A program made the translations under genes and the position numbers. Shown here in pieces: positions 7,618 to 62,208 of a stretch of 64,000 bases of DNA. Position 1 is the stretch's first letter, and every line of letters begins with the position of its first letter. Location: assembly GCA_000004985.1 (NCBI GenBank), contig GG738870.1; one strand, given 5' to 3'. The stretch comes from Naegleria gruberi (taxonomy: Eukaryota). Under the pieces are notes generated by a model. The model did no database searches and had not been told where the DNA came from. It saw only the letters and a program-made list of their open reading frames with translations.

Positions 7618-7706
7618 AGGGTGGTACGTGGATCGAACACGTGACCATCGGATGTCTGCTGCAAATAACTTTGCAATCCGGTGCTCTACCGCTGAGCTAA
7701 CCACCC
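7618..7706 (-). tRNA. tRNA-Cys (anticodon GCA) with 17-nt intron
   Basis: Reverse complement folds as GGGTGGT|TA|GCTC|AGCGGTA|GAGC|A|CCGGA|TTGCAA[intron AGTTATTTGCAGCAGAC]A|TCCGA|TGGTC|ACGTG|TTCGATC|CACGT|ACCACCC|T. Acceptor, D and T stems pair fully; the anticodon stem has a C27–A43 mismatch. Anticodon is GCA. Intron sits at the canonical 37/38 position. T-run lies downstream on the gene strand. Sequence identical to the copy at 14256. Confidence 0.8.
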
Positions 7707-7980
7707 ATTCAATATTCTTCAAAACTTAATCTAATACGACAATAGAAAACAGCAAATTTTTATAATACATACTTAAATGAAAGTAAGTAAGGAAAGTAAT
7801 ACTTACTCAGCTGAGTCTAAGTTTCAAATATAAGGAAAATTCAAAAAGTAATTATGTCTCATTGAATCTCACCGTTTATTTGTATCAACTCCCTGCCAAA
7901 ATCTGTGAGAAATTTGTAGTGTTACTCAACTTTCGTTCAATGAACTGTGAAGAAGAACCAAATCCAATAAATTTGAAAAA

Positions 7981-14255: not shown

Positions 14256-14344
14256 GGGTGGTTAGCTCAGCGGTAGAGCACCGGATTGCAAAGTTATTTG
14301 CAGCAGACATCCGATGGTCACGTGTTCGATCCACGTACCACCCT
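14256..14344 (+). tRNA. tRNA-Cys (anticodon GCA) with 17-nt intron
   Basis: Sequence is identical to the minus-strand copy at 7618..7706, so the cloverleaf is the same. TTTT lies just downstream. The ORF-track entry 14152..14391(-) is a translation through this tRNA. Confidence 0.8.
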
Positions 14345-24985: not shown

Positions 24986-25059
24986 GCAGCGATAGATCAG
25001 TTGGTTAGATCGTAAGCCTAACACGCTTAAGGTCGCGGGTTCAAGCCCCGCTCGCTGTA
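24986..25059 (+). tRNA. tRNA-Val (anticodon AAC)
   Basis: Folds as GCAGCGA|TA|GATC|AGTTGGTTA|GATC|G|TAAGC|CTAACAC|GCTTA|AGGTC|GCGGG|TTCAAGC|CCCGC|TCGCTGT|A. All stems paired, with a G1·U72 wobble. Anticodon loop is CT-AAC-AC. TTTT downstream. ORF 24974..25231(-) is an artefact over this gene. Confidence 0.85.
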
Positions 25060-25428: not shown

Positions 25429-25517
25429 GGCGGCTTAGCACAGTGGCAGTGCATCAGTCTTGTAGACAGAAATGCTGAGATAACTGAGGGTCGAGGGTTC
25501 AATTCCCTCAGTCGCCT
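25429..25517 (+). tRNA. tRNA-Thr (anticodon UGU) with 17-nt intron
   Basis: Folds as GGCGGCT|TA|GCAC|AGTGGCA|GTGC|A|TCAGT|CTTGTA[intron GACAGAAATGCTGAGAT]A|ACTGA|GGGTC|GAGGG|TTCAATT|CCCTC|AGTCGCC|T. Perfect 5-bp anticodon stem, intron at the 37/38 position, TTTT terminator. A Tyr(GTA) reading was tested and rejected because the stem register then fails. Confidence 0.6.
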
Positions 25518-51761: not shown

Positions 51762-53828
51762 ATGCCGAAAGTATCTGCAACACCAGTTTCTTCCTTCAAC
51801 ATGCGAGGTCAGGTGTTTCAGGTGTCGTTGCTACTGGTAGTGATGCTAATCATCATGATGACAACAGGAAGGAATGTGGAGGCCAACACGTTATCTTCTG
51901 AAACGAAACTAGAAGAATTTGTAGAATGTCCTTTCGAATATTACACTTCTGGGCAATTAAACACGAAAAAGTATGATCAGTTGGTGGCAGAATGTGCTTT
52001 TGCTCGAGTCCCTTTCCAATACGAAACTAACACCACAGATATAACTTCACTCTTCATCAAGAGAATTAGAAAACGAGACGAAACTAATCTGCCAAGAAAA
52101 ATAGTTTGGTTTATTCCAGGAGGTGGATTTGGACCTGGTCACTCAACCATTCACCTCGATGTGGAAATGGTTAAATATTTCATCTCTGAACTGTATAACA
52201 GAACTGACAATTATCAATATTCCATTTATAGTGTCGAACATCGAGGTGTTGGAAGAAGTGATAGATTATCTTGTCAATCAAGTCAAGCAGAATCACCTTC
52301 TAGTGATGGTGGTTATTATATTACTAAAAAGGAATGGCCAAAATGTGTGCAAGATTTGTCAAAACTTGAAACTCTGGTTTATTCTTCGGATAATGCTGCA
52401 ATTGACTTGTTGAAAGTAATGAAAATGGTCAAGACAATGTACAGTGATTCAATTCATTACATGTATGGATATTATTATGGAGCTTTTTGGATTATGAAAA
52501 CTTTGAGATTTACTGAATTAAATGATTTGACCATGTTAAATTCAATTAAGGGAATTATGATTGAGAATCCATTCACTAAAAAGTTTCATTTGAATGATAT
52601 TGATTCAGTCATGATTGATACTTTCAAAAATGTGTTGAAATTTTGCTCGGATAAAACACTTGCTGATAAGTATGACAAGACGTGTTATGAAAAATTGGGA
52701 GGACAAGATGTCTATGCATTATTGAAAAGTACAATGAAGAAGGTTTACAATGTAGATTTTGATTCTCATTCATCAGGACATTCAGTGATGAGTGGAGGTG
52801 GAGGTGGTGGAGGTAGTGGAGGTGGAGAGTCTGATGGTGGACATGGAACTGTACCAAACACTCCATGTGGCCTTGTTTCTTCCAAACTTCCATTCTACAA
52901 TTTAACAAGAATATTCGGTTCATTGATGAGGACAAGGAATGGGCAAGCAATCATTCCTGCCATTATTTACCGATTCAATAGATGTGATGACAGTAAGGAT
53001 GTTCACATCTTGTACAATTTGGTCAAATATTATGCAACATATGTTGAATCCAAATCATATGCCACTAACTATTTGTTGGATAGTGATTCTGTATTTTACA
53101 ATATTGTCTTTTCAGAGTTTTGGAAGGAATCTCACCAGACAGAGAGTGAAATTTCTGAAGATATGGCTCATTCCTATGTAAATACAGGTTTTGATTTGAA
53201 ACTGGCTCAAGTTTGGAATGCAACACATCACTGGGAGGGCCCAGAAATCTACACTCCTAAAATTGACACGTCCTTCTCCAATCCAACAAATATTCCAATT
53301 TTGGTTATTGATGCTGATGCAGATACTTATATGACTTCTGATTATCCTACTGATTTTGAGAGCTCTCTCAGTGGAACAAATCACAAACTTGTCACCATTC
53401 CATTTTCTCTCCCACCAACAATTGTCAATTCACCAGTGAAAGGAAAATCAGATTGTGGAAGCCAAATACTAACTAGCTTAATAACATTGGATTCAACTAA
53501 TCCAAATGTTCAACAAGTCAACACTCAATGCCTAGATCAATTACAATTCAATTTCACTGGATCATCTTCCTTCAACAAGTTAGTCTTCCAAGTTTCAGAT
53601 ATTTACGAGGGAGTCTATGTCTACTCAACCTTCTACACTGGAACCATCTCTACCACTCTCTTCTTTGCAGTTGTTTTGGGAATTTCCATTGGTTTCCTAG
53701 TTGTTCTCATAGTTGCCATGTGTGTCACTTGTACCATGAGATTGACCTTCCTTAATAACAAGGCCTATAAGAAACTCACCTCAAGCACAGCAAGTGGTCA
53801 CGATCCATCCATGTGGAACAATCTATAA
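51762..53828 (+). CDS. type-I membrane alpha/beta-hydrolase-fold protein (proline-iminopeptidase/S33-like)
   Basis: ATG start with N-terminal signal/TM segment (VFQVSLLLVVMLIIMM). VWFIPGGGFGPGHS…SVEHRGVGRS resembles the S33 HGGPG/HxRGxGxS region. Gly-rich linker SGGGGGGGSGGGESDGGHG. C-terminal TM FFAVVLGISIGFLVVLIVAMCV. Confidence 0.4.
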   Translation: MPKVSATPVSSFNMRGQVFQVSLLLVVMLIIMMTTGRNVEANTLSSETKLEEFVECPFEYYTSGQLNTKKYDQLVAECAFARVPFQYETNTTDITSLFIKRIRKRDETNLPRKIVWFIPGGGFGPGHSTIHLDVEMVKYFISELYNRTDNYQYSIYSVEHRGVGRSDRLSCQSSQAESPSSDGGYYITKKEWPKCVQDLSKLETLVYSSDNAAIDLLKVMKMVKTMYSDSIHYMYGYYYGAFWIMKTLRFTELNDLTMLNSIKGIMIENPFTKKFHLNDIDSVMIDTFKNVLKFCSDKTLADKYDKTCYEKLGGQDVYALLKSTMKKVYNVDFDSHSSGHSVMSGGGGGGGSGGGESDGGHGTVPNTPCGLVSSKLPFYNLTRIFGSLMRTRNGQAIIPAIIYRFNRCDDSKDVHILYNLVKYYATYVESKSYATNYLLDSDSVFYNIVFSEFWKESHQTESEISEDMAHSYVNTGFDLKLAQVWNATHHWEGPEIYTPKIDTSFSNPTNIPILVIDADADTYMTSDYPTDFESSLSGTNHKLVTIPFSLPPTIVNSPVKGKSDCGSQILTSLITLDSTNPNVQQVNTQCLDQLQFNFTGSSSFNKLVFQVSDIYEGVYVYSTFYTGTISTTLFFAVVLGISIGFLVVLIVAMCVTCTMRLTFLNNKAYKKLTSSTASGHDPSMWNNL

Positions 53829-54283: not shown

Positions 54284-56014
54284 GTGGAAATTAAAAAGGA
54301 AAAATGGATGTTTTTAGAAAGTGATAATAGATCAGCGTTGTTTTCAGAGGGTAGTGGTGTGCATGGAGCAGAGTTATTCTCTGATTCACATTCCATGTTT
54401 AGTGGGGAATTTAATAGTAGACAGAGTGGGATTATGGTTTCTTGGGAAAATTCTAGTATTGTAACTGTTTCGAATATTTACTCATCAAATGAAGAGACTG
54501 TAGGTGAGGAGCAACAGCATGAGGAAGGGACAAGAATAAGTGAAAAGAATTACAAACTTGTGAACTGGAACAAATTGACGAGTCAGCAGTTGGTTCACAT
54601 ATTCTCCTTCCTCGTTGGTCGTGTGGAATTGTGTAAGGAAGACGAATTTTATTGGAATATTGTGAAACATCATTTACATGTGGAATCTGAACATGATGCT
54701 CTTCTTGCCCTCTTTAAATTAATTCCACCAAAGGAAAGTGTATTTCCACTCCATCATCTCATTAGTGAAATGAATAAGAGAGGAAAGTTCCAGGATTCTA
54801 AGTTTGAGGAATTTTACAAGATGGCCTACACCCATTTTGAAAAGATATTACTCCTTCTAAGATGTACAAACTTTACCAATCTAGTTCTAGCCCAGGGCAG
54901 AATTTCTTGGTTTGAAAGAGAGCAATTGGCCAATATGCAACGATTGATTATTTCGAGAGAATTGGGTTATTTACAACCTCTGAAAGTGGGAGAGACAGTC
55001 GAACAATTCGATGATGAAGTTGAATTGATTGATTCAGACAATGATCCTGCCCAATCTAATGACTACCTGGCAGAATTGTTCAGAAGGCGATTGTGCAGAC
55101 TCAACTTGACAAAATCAGATGAGGAATTTATTTCTCATCAAGAAAATGGATTCATGGATCTTGCATTCCACAAAATGATGCAACTCAGTGAGAAAATGTT
55201 CAGAGATTTTGACATGGACTGTAAAGATTTGGCACTCCCTTATAATTTCAGAAACTCTCATGTAAAATTTGAAATGGATATTTTCAATACCAATTCGAAA
55301 AAGTTAGGATTTTGTATGGATTATAATAGCTCGTATCAATTTGAAGTAGAAGATGAGGAAGAAGTTGAAGAATTGGTCAGTAACCTATCTCACTATCAAG
55401 TATTAGACATTAGAGATGTGACCCACTTTTCTACGTTTATGAACTTTGAAATCCCTAAAGAAATTGAGTTTGTTAATTTTTCAGGATCCATCCCTTATAA
55501 TTATGATCTAGGACAGGTCTACTTCCCAAATGTTAAATTTTTGAGGATAAATATTGAGAGCAATCAATCACATACCAATGATCTTGGAGATGAATACTTT
55601 TTAGATTTCGAAGATAGTACCAGCATGTTCTTGAATGAGTTTTTGAAAAGATTTCCAAACTTGATCCATCTCGTTATTAGGGGAATTGAGAATATATCAT
55701 TTTTTGAAAAATTGGATGAACTATTGAGTCATCTCTGGGTTTTAGAATTAATGATAGATGATGAGGACAGTTTTTGGGGAAAACCAGATTCTATTGAATG
55801 TTTGGAGAGAATTACTGACAAGGCCAAGAATCTCAAACAGCTCTTTTTGAATGTCAATTTGGATGTTAGAAGACCTCTAGCTGTTGACTATGAAAAGCTT
55901 AAATTATACTATAGTTTGGGCAATAACAGATTTTCAACTAGCATTGGTAGAGCAAGTATTGCAAGATTTTGTAAATCAGCCTTTGCCAATGTTTATCAAA
56001 CAACCAGAAATTAA
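54284..56014 (+). CDS. hypothetical protein, possibly with an upstream exon starting at ATG about 54136
   Basis: 576-aa ORF; listed start is GTG. An upstream ATG at about 54136 (MNDKRRNLDD…HHHHLYEE…) ends at TCAG|GTTTGT. No domain recognised. Confidence 0.35.
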   Translation: MEIKKEKWMFLESDNRSALFSEGSGVHGAELFSDSHSMFSGEFNSRQSGIMVSWENSSIVTVSNIYSSNEETVGEEQQHEEGTRISEKNYKLVNWNKLTSQQLVHIFSFLVGRVELCKEDEFYWNIVKHHLHVESEHDALLALFKLIPPKESVFPLHHLISEMNKRGKFQDSKFEEFYKMAYTHFEKILLLLRCTNFTNLVLAQGRISWFEREQLANMQRLIISRELGYLQPLKVGETVEQFDDEVELIDSDNDPAQSNDYLAELFRRRLCRLNLTKSDEEFISHQENGFMDLAFHKMMQLSEKMFRDFDMDCKDLALPYNFRNSHVKFEMDIFNTNSKKLGFCMDYNSSYQFEVEDEEEVEELVSNLSHYQVLDIRDVTHFSTFMNFEIPKEIEFVNFSGSIPYNYDLGQVYFPNVKFLRINIESNQSHTNDLGDEYFLDFEDSTSMFLNEFLKRFPNLIHLVIRGIENISFFEKLDELLSHLWVLELMIDDEDSFWGKPDSIECLERITDKAKNLKQLFLNVNLDVRRPLAVDYEKLKLYYSLGNNRFSTSIGRASIARFCKSAFANVYQTTRN

Positions 56015-56084
56015 TTTCCAATTTCGATTTCAATTTGACAAAAATAGCTACCACTCCTTATTTGAAAAATAAATACTTTACAAT

Positions 56085-57214
56085 ATGACAGGTTTAGTTG
56101 TCAAAAAAATGTTTACATTTATTGAGCCCTTGAAAAAGATATTGTCTGTAGTAATTCGCACCGTCGATAATTTGCGAGAAGAAAACAGAATCAATGATGA
56201 AAGGGAAGGAAGAAATCAACCATCCGAAACTAGTAGCAAAATATCAAACTATTCAAAAAGTGAAATAGAAGAAACCTACAAGGTAAAAATTTGCGAAAAA
56301 TTGGGACCAGTTGTTGACATTTCAAAACTAGGACAAGGCTCAAGTGGTGAGGTATTCAAGGTTTGTTTCATTGACCATTAATTATTAGAAATCACATTTA
56401 GGTTCACACTAAAAGTGAAATTCTTGTTGTGAAAATAGTCAACTCTAGTGAAAGAGCAAAAAAAGAAGCTAAAAGACACTTCTCACATCCTCATCTGCTT
56501 GCAATATATCCAGAGAAAACCTTTATAGATGGTGAATACCACTATATTGTGAGCGAATATGTTGGAGAAACTAATCTGTGTGATTATAGACGAAACTTGG
56601 AAAATATAGAAGAGGAATTAGTATGGAAAATGATCAAGCAGATGTACAAGGCACTAACCCATATGCATTCAAAATATATCTGTCATGGAGATTTCAAACT
56701 TGCAAACATTTTTGTAAAAAGTCATCATGATTTTCGTTTAGTGTTGGGAGATTTTGGACTTTCGAATAATGAAGAATCTGTAAACCTCAACATACTTGGA
56801 GGAACTCTTGGATTCCAAGCACCTGAACTTTTCAATGGTTTGACTGAAAAGTGTGATGTGTATTCTTTCGGAAAATCAATAATTCAACTAATTATTGGAA
56901 CAAAATTTAAACATAATATTTCAAATGAACAACTGATGGAAATGGTTGCAACAAGTCAACCAAAAATATCCTCATCACTCATAGATTTAATCAAGAAAAT
57001 GATTAAAGAAAATCCTGAAGAAAGACTATCACTAGATCAAGTTGGAGTACTTATCAGAAACAAGAATAAACCAAAGCAAAAGCAAACCAAACGAGATTCT
57101 AGTACTGAATCTGAAGAAGAATTAAAATCCTTACAAAGAACCTCCACAGGTGTCCAGAAACAAAAATCTAAACCTCAGACTGGCTTTTTTAGATATTGGG
57201 GTTTTAACAAATAA
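56085..57214 (+). CDS. protein kinase (Ser/Thr or dual-specificity fold). Two exons.
   Basis: Exon 1 from ATG 56085 to …LGQGSSGEVFK (Gly-rich loop). Intron at about 56361..56401 (GTTTGT…ATTTAG, 41 nt, phase 0). Exon 2 carries VHTKSEILVVKIV (beta-3 Lys), HGDFKLANIF (catalytic loop, HGD in place of HRD), DFG, and APE (FQAPELF). Confidence 0.8.
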
Positions 57215-57219
57215 AAAAA

Positions 57220-58664
57220 ATGACAAGTAATCAGCACATTTACACGATTGCCAAAAACTTGAATATTGAACAAGACAAAATTGAAGAAATTGTTGACTGT
57301 GTCTTCAAGGTTGGTTTCGGATTTTGGTTTCTAATATGTTTTTGCAAAGGTAACAATTCATAATTCTTCAGCAACACGGAAAGTTGAACTGTTCGTAGTT
57401 AAAGCTGTACTAAAGTCAAACCATGCTGAAGCAGAAAGTAGAAGAAACTTTAATCATAAGCACTTGATGAAAACCTTTCTAATAAGAAATTTCACTTCTG
57501 CTACACATTATTATTTATTCAGTGAATATGTTGGCGAGCAAAACTTGGTACAATACCGAAAAAATGTTAAAGAATTGCATGAGGAAAGAGTTTGGGATTT
57601 TATTAATCAAATGTCAAAAGCTCTCAATTACATGAATTCATATCCACATTTTACCATTCATAGAGATTTTTAGACAGTTGTAGGTAGATAAAATTTTGTC
57701 CCCAAATTTTTTTTGGCCAAGTCGAAACTCCAGCCATTTTTAGCTTGCGATTTTAAAAAATGTTACAAGTCGAGAATAAACCGTTACATTAGTTGGCGCC
57801 ACGAAAGAAGACGTTACACTTTCATCAAATAAACTTTAATTTCATCAAACAAAAAAAACCAAACCTCTCTTCACTTTTTGGTTGTTTTCCAACACAGGAT
57901 TTCACTATTGGTGCAACAACAACAACATCTTGAGAAATAACATTGTCCTCCAACACTTTCTTCATGTCCCGTTTTTGTTGTCCCCAAGCCAAGCCTTTTA
58001 GACTTGTAAAAAAATATTGGTCAGAGCAACAAATGTCCATTACCTACAACTGTCTAGAGATTTTAAATTGGAAAACATTATTCTAAAGAGTGGACATGAT
58101 TTTCATCTTGTTTTGGCTGATTATGGATTATGTAAGAGTGAGCTCACTAATTATGTGATCAGTGACAGGGGAACATTTGAATTTAAAGCACCAGAATTGA
58201 AAAATCAAAAAGATGAACAAGATGTAGAATTCCCTTTCAAATGTGATGTTTATTCATTTGGGAGATCAATCATTCATTTCATTTTGGGAAGTCAATTTTT
58301 AACTCTCGCTCAAAATGAAATCATCCTTAAAAACGATCCAAATAAGAAAACAGTGATGGATCACCTTATGGATCATAAACCATCTGAGGCCCTTTTCGAA
58401 TTGATTGAGAATATGATTGAGGAAGATCCAAAGTTTAGATTTGATATTAAGGAAGTAATTGCCTTTTATGAAAACAACAGACCAAGCAAATCAAAGACAT
58501 CCTTAGTCTTTCCAAAACCTGGGGAAATGAAACAGAAGATATCTAACAAAACCCCAAATCAAAGAACATCTAATTCCACTTCCTCCTCCAACACTATTTC
58601 ACGCTCTAGTCAAGGAATATCCAAACAACATAAAACCAAAGATAGGAGAGGTACAAAAAGATAA
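57220..58664 (+). pseudogene. tandem kinase paralog, degenerate (no Gly-rich loop, DFG→DYG) and interrupted by a TIR element within the catalytic-loop codons
   Basis: Its ATG lies 5 nt after the stop of the upstream kinase. Exon 1 MTSNQHIYTIAKNLNIEQDKIEEIVDCVFKV. A 56-nt intron (GTTTCG…TTCAG) joins …ATRKVELFVVKAV…YLFSEYVGEQNL…HFTIHRDF. The 386-bp insertion follows, then KLENIILKSGHDFHLVLADYGLCK…FKAPEL… Collinear with the upstream kinase. Confidence 0.55.
57671..58056. mobile_element. hAT-like non-autonomous TIR element (MITE) with 8-bp target-site duplication GAGATTTT, inserted in the kinase paralog coding sequence
   Basis: 16-bp perfect TIR TAGACAGTTGTAGGTA … TACCTACAACTGTCTA. Flanking direct repeat GAGATTTT at 57663–57670 and 58057–58064. 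Removing the element plus one TSD copy restores the open frame …HFTIHRDFKLENIILK… collinear with HGDFKLANIFVK of the neighbouring paralog. Confidence 0.75.
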
Positions 58665-59277
58665 TTCTAATTCCTTATAATCATTGATGGTTGTTCAAAC
58701 TCTTGATTGTAATGGACCTGTCATATTAAATTAAGAGTAATAGAATTTTTCGTGTCTCTAATCAAGCGATCACTCAATGTTGTGCACTTTCACTCTGGTT
58801 TGAAGTTTATTTCGATTGTTCTCATAGCTGGATGAGAATGAACGAATCAAATGATTGAAAAATCAAGATTGCTTCCATTACAAAAAGTGTAATATGAAAG
58901 GTTATCAATGAAATGCTCAATTTTACAGAAGCTCAATTGGTGATTCTTTGGAAATCCCATCAAATTTTCATAGTTAGGATAAGCCGTCCGAACAACTGAT
59001 AATAATTGAATATTGCAACTTATCGTACTTTCAATATTGGATTTTTTTTCATTCCAAGATATTCCACACATACTATTGAACATGTGCACAATCCAACCAT
59101 TGAAGTTCTTTCATTCTGTTCTTGTTTAATTCCCCGCACTGATTAACAAAGACCAAATGAACAATGTCCAAAATCTGTGGCTACTCTCTTTTTGGAACAT
59201 TATTCATCTTCTTTCATACCAAAAAAATCAATATATACTAATCAAACGAAACCTTTCAAATCTTTAAAAACTGGAAC

Positions 59278-61400: not shown

Positions 61401-62208
61401 CTCTCCCAACATGTTGATATTCAAAGTATTGATTATATTGGCTAGATTCTGAATCATTTGCAGACAAAAATTCTGAAGTGAAAATTTCCAAGCTATTAAC
61501 GTGATCTTTTTCCCAGAAATTAGTTTTCCATTTAAAGAAGTCTTGGACAATATTCAATCTGGTGCATTATATATAATGAAAGCAAAAAGACTACAGCACC
61601 ACAGGTTCCCAAGTTGTCTCCAACCTCAGTACTGATGTGGCTCGACGATGCTTAACTTCTCAAATCGGACGGGATGAGGTGCATTCATCGTGATATGGCC
61701 GTAGCCATTAACTCTCACCAAATGTGAAATTTCTTTCAATTCCCTTAAAGCATCTGTTTGCAACAATATTTCTCATCCAATATAATACAGTTTCTGATGT
61801 AACATAATTGTAAATGTTTGGTTATAGATGGAGTTTGTTGTAAGAAATCATCACCACTAGCCAACCATCCAGGTGATGAAGAAAAGCTGACCAACTTGAC
61901 AGGTGCATCCTTAAAATTAATTCTGTAATGTTTGTAAATTCTCAACATGTATTGATAAGGAGCCCAGGTGGCATGAGTAAGGAAAAGATTCTTCTTGTCT
62001 TCACTATACTTGATGAATGCAGTGCATCTTGTGTGAAGGAGTGTATATTTTTCAATAGGTTTCCATTAAATTGGCAGTTGTAAGACTCAACAAGGAGCTT
62101 CTCTTCATTGGGGAGGATGACGAACATGTTGCCAAAGGCTAAAATCGTGCGATTGTTACAATTTGGAGACTCTAGTTTACAATATCTTGTGGTTTGTCCA
62201 CAAAGTAT

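Follow-up and report, generated by a model that had tools for sequence, protein, structure and literature searches.

Two kinase genes in head-to-tail order

We report on a pair of neighbouring protein kinase genes in Naegleria gruberi, located in a stretch of 64,000 nucleotides (nt) of contig GG738870.1 (assembly GCA_000004985.1; the whole stretch is referred to as the window). The upstream gene is referred to as copy 1 and the downstream gene as copy 2; the latter is interrupted by a 386-bp miniature inverted-repeat transposable element (MITE), which is flanked by a target-site duplication (TSD) and ends in terminal inverted repeats (TIRs). The coordinates of all features are given in Table 1. 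A first-pass annotation made from the sequence had described two collinear kinase genes with a common exon structure, with copy 2 beginning 5 nt past the copy 1 stop codon and carrying a MITE, and all of this was confirmed: in both genes a phase 0 intron follows ...VFK, a run of five A separates the copy 1 stop codon (TAA at 57212-57214) from the copy 2 ATG, and the TIRs and the TSD of the element are perfect (16/16 and 8/8 positions, respectively).

Table 1. Coordinates of the kinase gene pair and of the element inserted into copy 2 (positions in the window)
Feature	Position	Strand	Description
Copy 1 kinase gene	56085-57214	+	Head-to-tail with copy 2; predicted Ser/Thr kinase, 362-aa (amino acid) product from the ATG at 56085
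Copy 1 exon 1	56085-56360	+	Low-complexity N-terminal extension, beta1, glycine-rich loop (G-loop) LGQGSSG, beta2; ends ...LGQGSSGEVFK
Copy 1 intron	56361-56401	+	41 nt, GTTTGT...TTTAG (GT..AG), phase 0, between K and V of ...EVFK/V
Copy 1 exon 2	56402-57214	+	beta3 Lys (VVK), SEYVGE hinge, HGDFKLAN, DFG, APE, basic C-terminal tail
Spacer between copy 1 stop and copy 2 ATG	57215-57219	+	5-nt A-run (AAAAA); six A in the second strain
Copy 2 kinase gene	57220-58664	+	ATG 5 nt past the copy 1 stop, in another reading frame
Copy 2 exon 1	57220-57309	+	30 codons; glycine-free IEEIVDCVFK where the G-loop would be
Copy 2 intron	57310-57349	+	40 nt, GTTGGT...CAAAG (GT..AG), phase 0, position homologous to that of the copy 1 intron
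Copy 2 exon 2, before the insertion	57350-57670	+	beta3 VVK, alphaC Glu, SEYVGE, HRDF; last 8 nt are the left TSD copy
TSD, GAGATTTT	left 57663-57670; right 58057-58064	+	8 of 8 bp identical; flanks the MITE
MITE	57671-58056	.	386 bp, non-autonomous DNA transposon; perfect 16-bp (16/16) TIRs, TAGACAGTTGTAGGTA
Copy 2 exon 2, after the insertion	58065-58664	+	KLEN, DYG, APE, C-lobe, Ser/Thr/Lys-rich tail; TAA at 58662-58664

The sequence blocks expected from the first-pass annotation were also found, i.e. VVK, SEYVGE, APE and the catalytic loop (HGDFKLAN in copy 1 and HRDFKLEN in copy 2) in both genes, the G-loop (within LGQGSSGEVFKV), HGD and DFG in copy 1, and IEEIVDCVFKV in place of the G-loop together with DYG in place of DFG in copy 2. 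Both products match the Pkinase profile (PF00069; Pfam gathering cut-off 31.7 bits), copy 1 with 132.6 bits and copy 2 with 88.3 bits, where the match of copy 2 begins only at residue 52, corresponding to profile position 43. From their motifs both would be Ser/Thr-specific kinases. All catalytic residues are kept in copy 1 (the Lys of VVK, the Asp of HGD, the Asn and the Asp of DFG, all in invariant alignment columns) and its glycine-rich loop, GQGSSG, agrees with the GxGxxG pattern; its catalytic loop is of the non-RD type (HGD in place of HRD), which is in itself unusual. Read without splicing, copy 1 reaches a TAA after six codons of its intron and the copy 2 intron likewise leads to a stop within a few codons. 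Splicing of the copy 1 intron is needed since it joins the G-loop to the VVK of beta3.

The last 190 aa of copy 1 are identical to N. gruberi XP_002676723.1 (NAEGRDRAFT_68007, P0135; on a 418-kb scaffold). The public model covers this part alone and its annotation appears to be truncated. No model for copy 2 was found in the reference annotation, for which the MITE insertion may be the reason. With respect to the 5' end of copy 1, a contig from a second strain (L003, see below) has a 1-nt deletion at 56093, which puts the ATG at 56085 out of frame, and translation of copy 1 therefore probably begins at 56109. The ATG there sits in an A-rich context, as does that of copy 2, and the open reading frame (ORF) called on L003 (P0140, 90 aa) begins at Met9 of copy 1, reads into the intron and ends with ...EVFKVCFIDH followed by a stop.

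Two other ways of reading the copy 1 and copy 2 frames were considered and rejected. For an intron that would remove the copy 1 stop codon, the candidate is 57150-57192 (43 nt, GT..AG), but its removal changes the frame and a stop is still reached, as checked manually. The ciliate genetic code, thought of because the DNA is AT-rich, found no use, as neither the 362 codons of copy 1 nor the 336 codons of copy 2 contain an in-frame TAA or TAG.

A MITE interrupts the catalytic loop of copy 2

The element interrupts the catalytic loop after codon 137 of copy 2, with HRDF on its left and KLEN on its right, and its first three bases read as an in-frame TAG that follows immediately on HRDF (residue 137). 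The predicted copy 2 product of this genome is truncated to an N-lobe fragment of 137 aa and, as assembled here, copy 2 would be non-functional. Apart from its TIRs, TSD and small size, the element has the lack of coding capacity typical of a MITE: the longest ORF is 71 aa, and the six longest ORFs gave no Pfam match and no transposase remnant. An 8-bp TSD and short TIRs of 5-27 bp are features of hAT transposons (PMC3517528), and the element has both (8 bp and 16 bp). We refer to it as a hAT-like MITE by TSD length only.

Excision of 57671-58064, i.e. the element plus one TSD copy (394 nt), restores a clean copy 2 ORF of 336 codons in which no other frameshift or stop is present, and the MITE is hence the sole disabling lesion. 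Such an ORF is not expected by chance: among 20,000 shuffles none was stop-free, approximately 26.5 stops were expected (P about 3e-12), and 21 and 43 stops are present in the two remaining frames. The codon usage of copy 2 is normal and correlates with that of the other genes in the window (r = 0.86) slightly better than does that of copy 1 (r = 0.76).

A misassembly that placed a repeat into copy 2 has a negligible probability as the origin of the insertion. Such an artefact would agree with the element being present as a single copy in the window and absent from a near-identical strain; however, inverted ends of 16 bp enclosed by an 8-bp TSD, both perfect, are the mark of a real transposition and not of a mis-join.

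Elsewhere in the window a second MITE-like element of another family was noted at 51232-51585 (approximately 354 bp). It is intergenic, upstream of a gene at 51762, and its inverted ends (CTGTAAAACCCCAGCCGTAAGACT... and ...AGTCTTACGGATGGGGTTTTACAG) have TA on either side, which looks like a TA duplication of the Tc1/mariner (Stowaway-like) type.

An exact empty site in a second strain

Contigs of a second strain were present in one ENA metagenome assembly (ERZ929261; ENA project PRJEB11402). A literature search for this project gave no match. The contig L002 (1,226 nt) aligns to window positions 57082-58700 with an identity of 99.5-99.7% and comprises the 3' end of copy 1, a spacer of six A, the copy 2 ATG and the 40-nt copy 2 intron; the retained intron shows that L002 is derived from genomic DNA and not from cDNA. 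Its sequence at the insertion site is CATAGAGATTTTAAATTGG, i.e. an exact empty site with a single GAGATTTT, where the element and one TSD copy are absent. Copy 2 is uninterrupted in this strain, and the protein called on L002 (P0134, 267 aa) matches the reconstructed copy 2 with 100% identity. The 5' part of copy 1 is present on another contig of this sample, L003, which aligns to window positions 55852-56585 with 98.5% identity. A near-identical strain thus has both kinase genes, with a spacer of 6 instead of 5 nt, and lacks the element. There is no footprint at the empty site in L002, which argues that it represents the ancestral state and not the product of an excision. On the basis of the two genomes, the insertion is at most about as old as their divergence of roughly 0.4%.

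The empty site also bears on whether the MITE acts as an introner, i.e. is spliced from the pre-mRNA such that copy 2 still gives a full-length kinase. Removal of the element and one TSD copy (394 nt) restores the frame exactly, and there are AG dinucleotides at the right boundary (...CTGTCTAG/AG), as this would require. However, none of the nine offsets that allow precise removal offers a GT, GC or AT donor (GAGATTTT/TA). Moreover, the in-frame TAG is at the very start of the element and there is no GT in the 50 nt upstream, so that any donor inside the MITE lies past the stop codon. Finally, the element-free copy in L002 is genomic and has retained its real intron. We therefore rejected introner-like removal, given the missing splice sites at the boundaries and the in-frame TAG, and consider it highly improbable that copy 2 is rescued in this way.

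Age of the duplication

The first-pass annotation had taken the pair for a recent tandem duplication. The two genes are indeed tandem paralogues, but the protein alignment that had been proposed as a check speaks against a recent origin: the copies are 40% identical over 245 residues (E = 5e-55), a likeness that is far beyond chance, and a codon alignment of the kinase core gave a nucleotide identity of 56%. Synonymous sites are near saturation, with a proportion of differences (pS) of 0.69-0.71, and the estimates are about 1.9-2.2 synonymous (dS) and about 0.5-0.58 non-synonymous (dN) substitutions per site. The high identity and unsaturated synonymous sites of a recent tandem duplicate were accordingly not found. 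A third paralogue, NAEGRDRAFT_66375 (P0136), is located on another N. gruberi scaffold and has an identity of 35% to copy 1 and of 38-39% to copy 2. The low identities, the saturated dS and a third paralogue that is about equally distant from both together point to an old duplication in a small and old family.

Comparison with other proteins indicates that this family is narrowly distributed. In an exhaustive profile search with both copies only ten library proteins were obtained at E <= 1e-30. Four of these are from this locus or represent the third paralogue (P0134, P0135, P0136 and P0140), while the remaining six have two to five matched kinase stretches each and come from unrelated taxa; the next-best matches below these ten are a similar mix of unrelated taxa. 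Since beyond N. gruberi and the ENA strain no orthologue was detected at E < 1e-30, the kinase subfamily appears from these comparisons to be lineage-specific and so far present only in N. gruberi. A scan of JGI (Joint Genome Institute) metagenomes with peptide patterns of both copies gave no match. A word-index protein search with copy 1 returned only kinases of 24-37% identity and missed both the identical P0135 and the 35% identical P0136, which were recovered by the exhaustive profile search; negative results of the word-index searches with copy 1 and copy 2 are consequently weak evidence.

Integrity of copy 2 before the insertion

For copy 2 the first-pass annotation had suggested a drift toward a pseudokinase or a pseudogene. 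A pseudokinase was here taken to be a kinase in which at least one of the Lys of VAIK, the Asp of HRD and the Asp of DFG is substituted. Copy 2 retains K48 (VVK), D136 (HRD) and D156 (DYG) as well as N141, the alphaC Glu and APE (invariant columns in two alignments), and the change from DFG to DYG preserves the metal-binding Asp. All three defining residues are present in copy 1 as well as in copy 2, and the suggested drift toward a pseudokinase is not supported. What copy 2 does lack is the glycine-rich loop, with EEIVDC at the equivalent position in exon 1, and this is its sole long-standing degeneration.

The structural prediction is in keeping with a kinase fold. The AlphaFold2 (AF2) model of copy 2, which was based on a shallow alignment of 15 sequences, is a complete bilobal kinase (predicted template modelling score, pTM, 0.66) with a confident C-lobe, while the beta1-beta2 hairpin was predicted with a per-residue confidence (pLDDT) of only about 45-50. 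The best Foldseek matches to the model are ordinary kinases (RIPK1, Aurora A and CDPK1).

The evolutionary rates of the two copies were compared with NAEGRDRAFT_66375 as outgroup. Among 211 core columns, 27 lineage-specific changes were assigned to copy 1 and 20 to copy 2 (p = 0.31), and by this count copy 2 is not evolving faster than copy 1. The many lesions, relaxed constraint and faster evolution of a decaying pseudogene were thus not observed. As regards the pseudogene, the first-pass annotation holds in so far as copy 2 is non-functional as assembled here; the idea of decay or drift does not, considering that the MITE is the sole lesion, that the rates do not differ and that L002 carries an intact allele.

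These data allow us to weigh the view that a recent tandem duplication was followed by stepwise decay of copy 2, through loss of the G-loop, the change of DFG to DYG and the insertion. The tandem layout and the common intron position, together with the three changes just named, are what this view would lead one to expect. Against it stand the low protein and nucleotide identities with saturated synonymous sites, the MITE as the only disabling lesion in 336 codons, the lack of any rate acceleration, the retention of the Lys and both Asp residues, and the intact allele in a genome that is 99.6% identical. We consider a recent duplication with gradual decay to be very unlikely.

Transcription of the gene pair

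Only 5-6 nt separate the two genes, and neither a promoter nor a 5' untranslated region (UTR) fits into a spacer of this size; transcription of copy 2 must therefore begin inside copy 1 or be shared with it. The former would mean that the copy 2 promoter is inside copy 1, which is the arrangement we infer. The latter would make copy 1 and copy 2 one transcription unit, either with bicistronic re-initiation or as a spliced tandem-kinase fusion in which the second domain lacks a G-loop. The spacing is tight in both strains (5 nt in the window and 6 nt in L002) and far below that of all other head-to-tail pairs in the window, about 70-650 nt, and 16 in-frame GT/GC..AG pairs could formally bridge the copy 1 stop codon. 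However, these candidates are 74-269 nt long, compared to 40-41 nt for the real introns, and their number is what chance predicts. In addition, the two genes are in different frames, copy 2 begins with an ATG of its own, the surroundings of which are A-rich as in neighbouring genes, and a literature search gave no paper that joins Naegleria with polycistronic or bicistronic transcription. A stop-bridging intron or fusion was accordingly rejected, since the candidates are at chance level and none resembles the real introns, and a single transcription unit is on the whole unlikely. It would concern expression only and leaves the conclusions about the age of the duplication and the MITE unaffected.

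Convergent ORFs throughout the window end 8-24 nt apart (e.g. 16693/16702, 32124/32136 and 1069/1094), which means that their 3' ends must overlap or abut. With genes packed to this extent, a head-to-tail spacer of 5 nt is less isolated as an oddity.

An old kinase pair with a probable recent null allele

Taken together, our data very probably reflect an ancient, lineage-specific pair of kinase genes that have been maintained separately, with copy 2 of this genome being a recent null allele caused by a MITE insertion. An ancient duplication gave rise to two predicted Ser/Thr kinase genes, each of which would have been kept on its own. Very recently, the 386-bp element inserted into the catalytic loop of copy 2, between HRDF and KLEN, where the immediate TAG would leave the N-lobe fragment of 137 aa, i.e. 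a simple insertional null allele. Until then copy 2 was presumably functional.

A number of observations weigh against this interpretation or parts of it. The pairwise dN/dS, which the first-pass annotation had named as a check, was obtained and is about 0.25, but the figure is unreliable since dS is saturated. The one non-synonymous (S59G) and two synonymous differences in copy 2 between the strains are not sufficient for a test of selection. The argument for a functional copy 2 before the insertion draws on ORF integrity and motif retention, and without a G-loop copy 2 may never have bound ATP normally. With respect to the element, no second copy is present in the window and a scan of JGI metagenomes requiring both MITE ends gave no match, so that any assignment to a family or superfamily, and any copy number, is tentative. 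The target site GAGATTTT (reverse complement AAAATCTC) fits neither the Ac consensus, nTnnnnAn, nor the Buster consensus, nnnTAnnn; this comparison involves one insertion site and is weak evidence.

Both DNA transposons and retrotransposons are reported from N. gruberi, where most repeats are unclassified, with only a small fraction assigned to a class, and younger insertions are more methylated (PMC12344493). Our literature search for Naegleria MITEs and hAT elements gave nothing specific. The MITE in copy 2 provides a clean and dated case of recent DNA-transposon activity in this species, and its presence/absence polymorphism might be used to tell strains apart or to track down an active transposase; on a further-reaching reading, which is unlikely, the MITE would stand for the first DNA transposon family shown to be active in N. 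gruberi. Likewise, if the two kinases were expressed from one transcript, this would be a gene organisation not described for Heterolobosea, and the spacing of 5-6 nt in any case makes one wonder, on a small scale, how Naegleria genes are transcribed when packed this closely. The pair also illustrates a lineage-specific and fast-evolving kinase subfamily, in which copy 2 has apparently been maintained for a long time although it has no glycine-rich loop, and may hence bind nucleotides in an unusual manner. In practical terms the locus is of modest value, for annotation, as a marker of transposon activity, and as a pointer to a G-loop-less kinase and a tight gene junction. A kinase pair broken by a transposon is ordinary biology and leaves current understanding unchanged.

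Other features of the window

The match of copy 1 to XP_002676723.1 assigns the window to N. gruberi, and its G+C content of 33% and compactly spaced genes agree with this, as do the actins. Among the best named full-length matches (about 375 aa) of an actin gene in the window are Naegleria and Willaertia actins. Two tRNA genes of 89 nt, apparently intron-containing, are located at 7618-7706 (- strand) and 14256-14344 (+ strand) in a duplicated segment of approximately 145 bp that is 95% identical; further tRNA genes were identified at 24986-25059 and 25429-25517. The 145-bp repeat, seen on comparing the metagenome contig L001 with the window, was considered as a mobile element and turned out to be the duplicated tRNA gene. 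A 59-nt intergenic stretch near a tRNA gene (7745-7803) is missing from L001, which is 97-99% identical, and represents a strain indel. A full-length 5S rRNA gene (Rfam, 105 bits) is present among protein-coding genes at 61588-61706 (- strand).

Comparison with known systems

Like other PF00069 kinases, both copies have a full bilobal domain with a Ser/Thr-type catalytic loop, H(R/G)D-x-K-x-x-N, D(F/Y)G and APE, and by sequence the nearest relatives with solved structures are Aurora A and calcium-dependent/CAMK-type kinases. They are unlike these in that they are only about 20-30% identical to any characterised kinase, copy 1 is non-RD, copy 2 has no G-loop and neither has regulatory domains. 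Copy 2 resembles some of the classical pseudokinases in its degenerate glycine-rich nucleotide-binding loop but differs from them in keeping K48, D136 and D156.

With hAT-type MITEs, such as Mar and Vege of Drosophila willistoni and Ds1 of maize, the element in copy 2 shares the short length, the absence of coding sequence, short and perfect TIRs (16 bp in this element), the 8-bp TSD and the presence/absence polymorphism between close genomes; it departs from them in its TSD, which is off both consensuses, and in its TIR, which starts with TAGAC, where hAT TIRs usually start with YARNG. A further parallel is with null alleles caused by transposons in exons, such as those of Ds and mPing: in copy 2, as in these, a clean exon insertion with a TSD and a premature stop is accompanied by an intact empty-site allele. 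Nothing of substance sets copy 2 apart from them, and it appears to be an ordinary example from a protist with few classified mobile elements.

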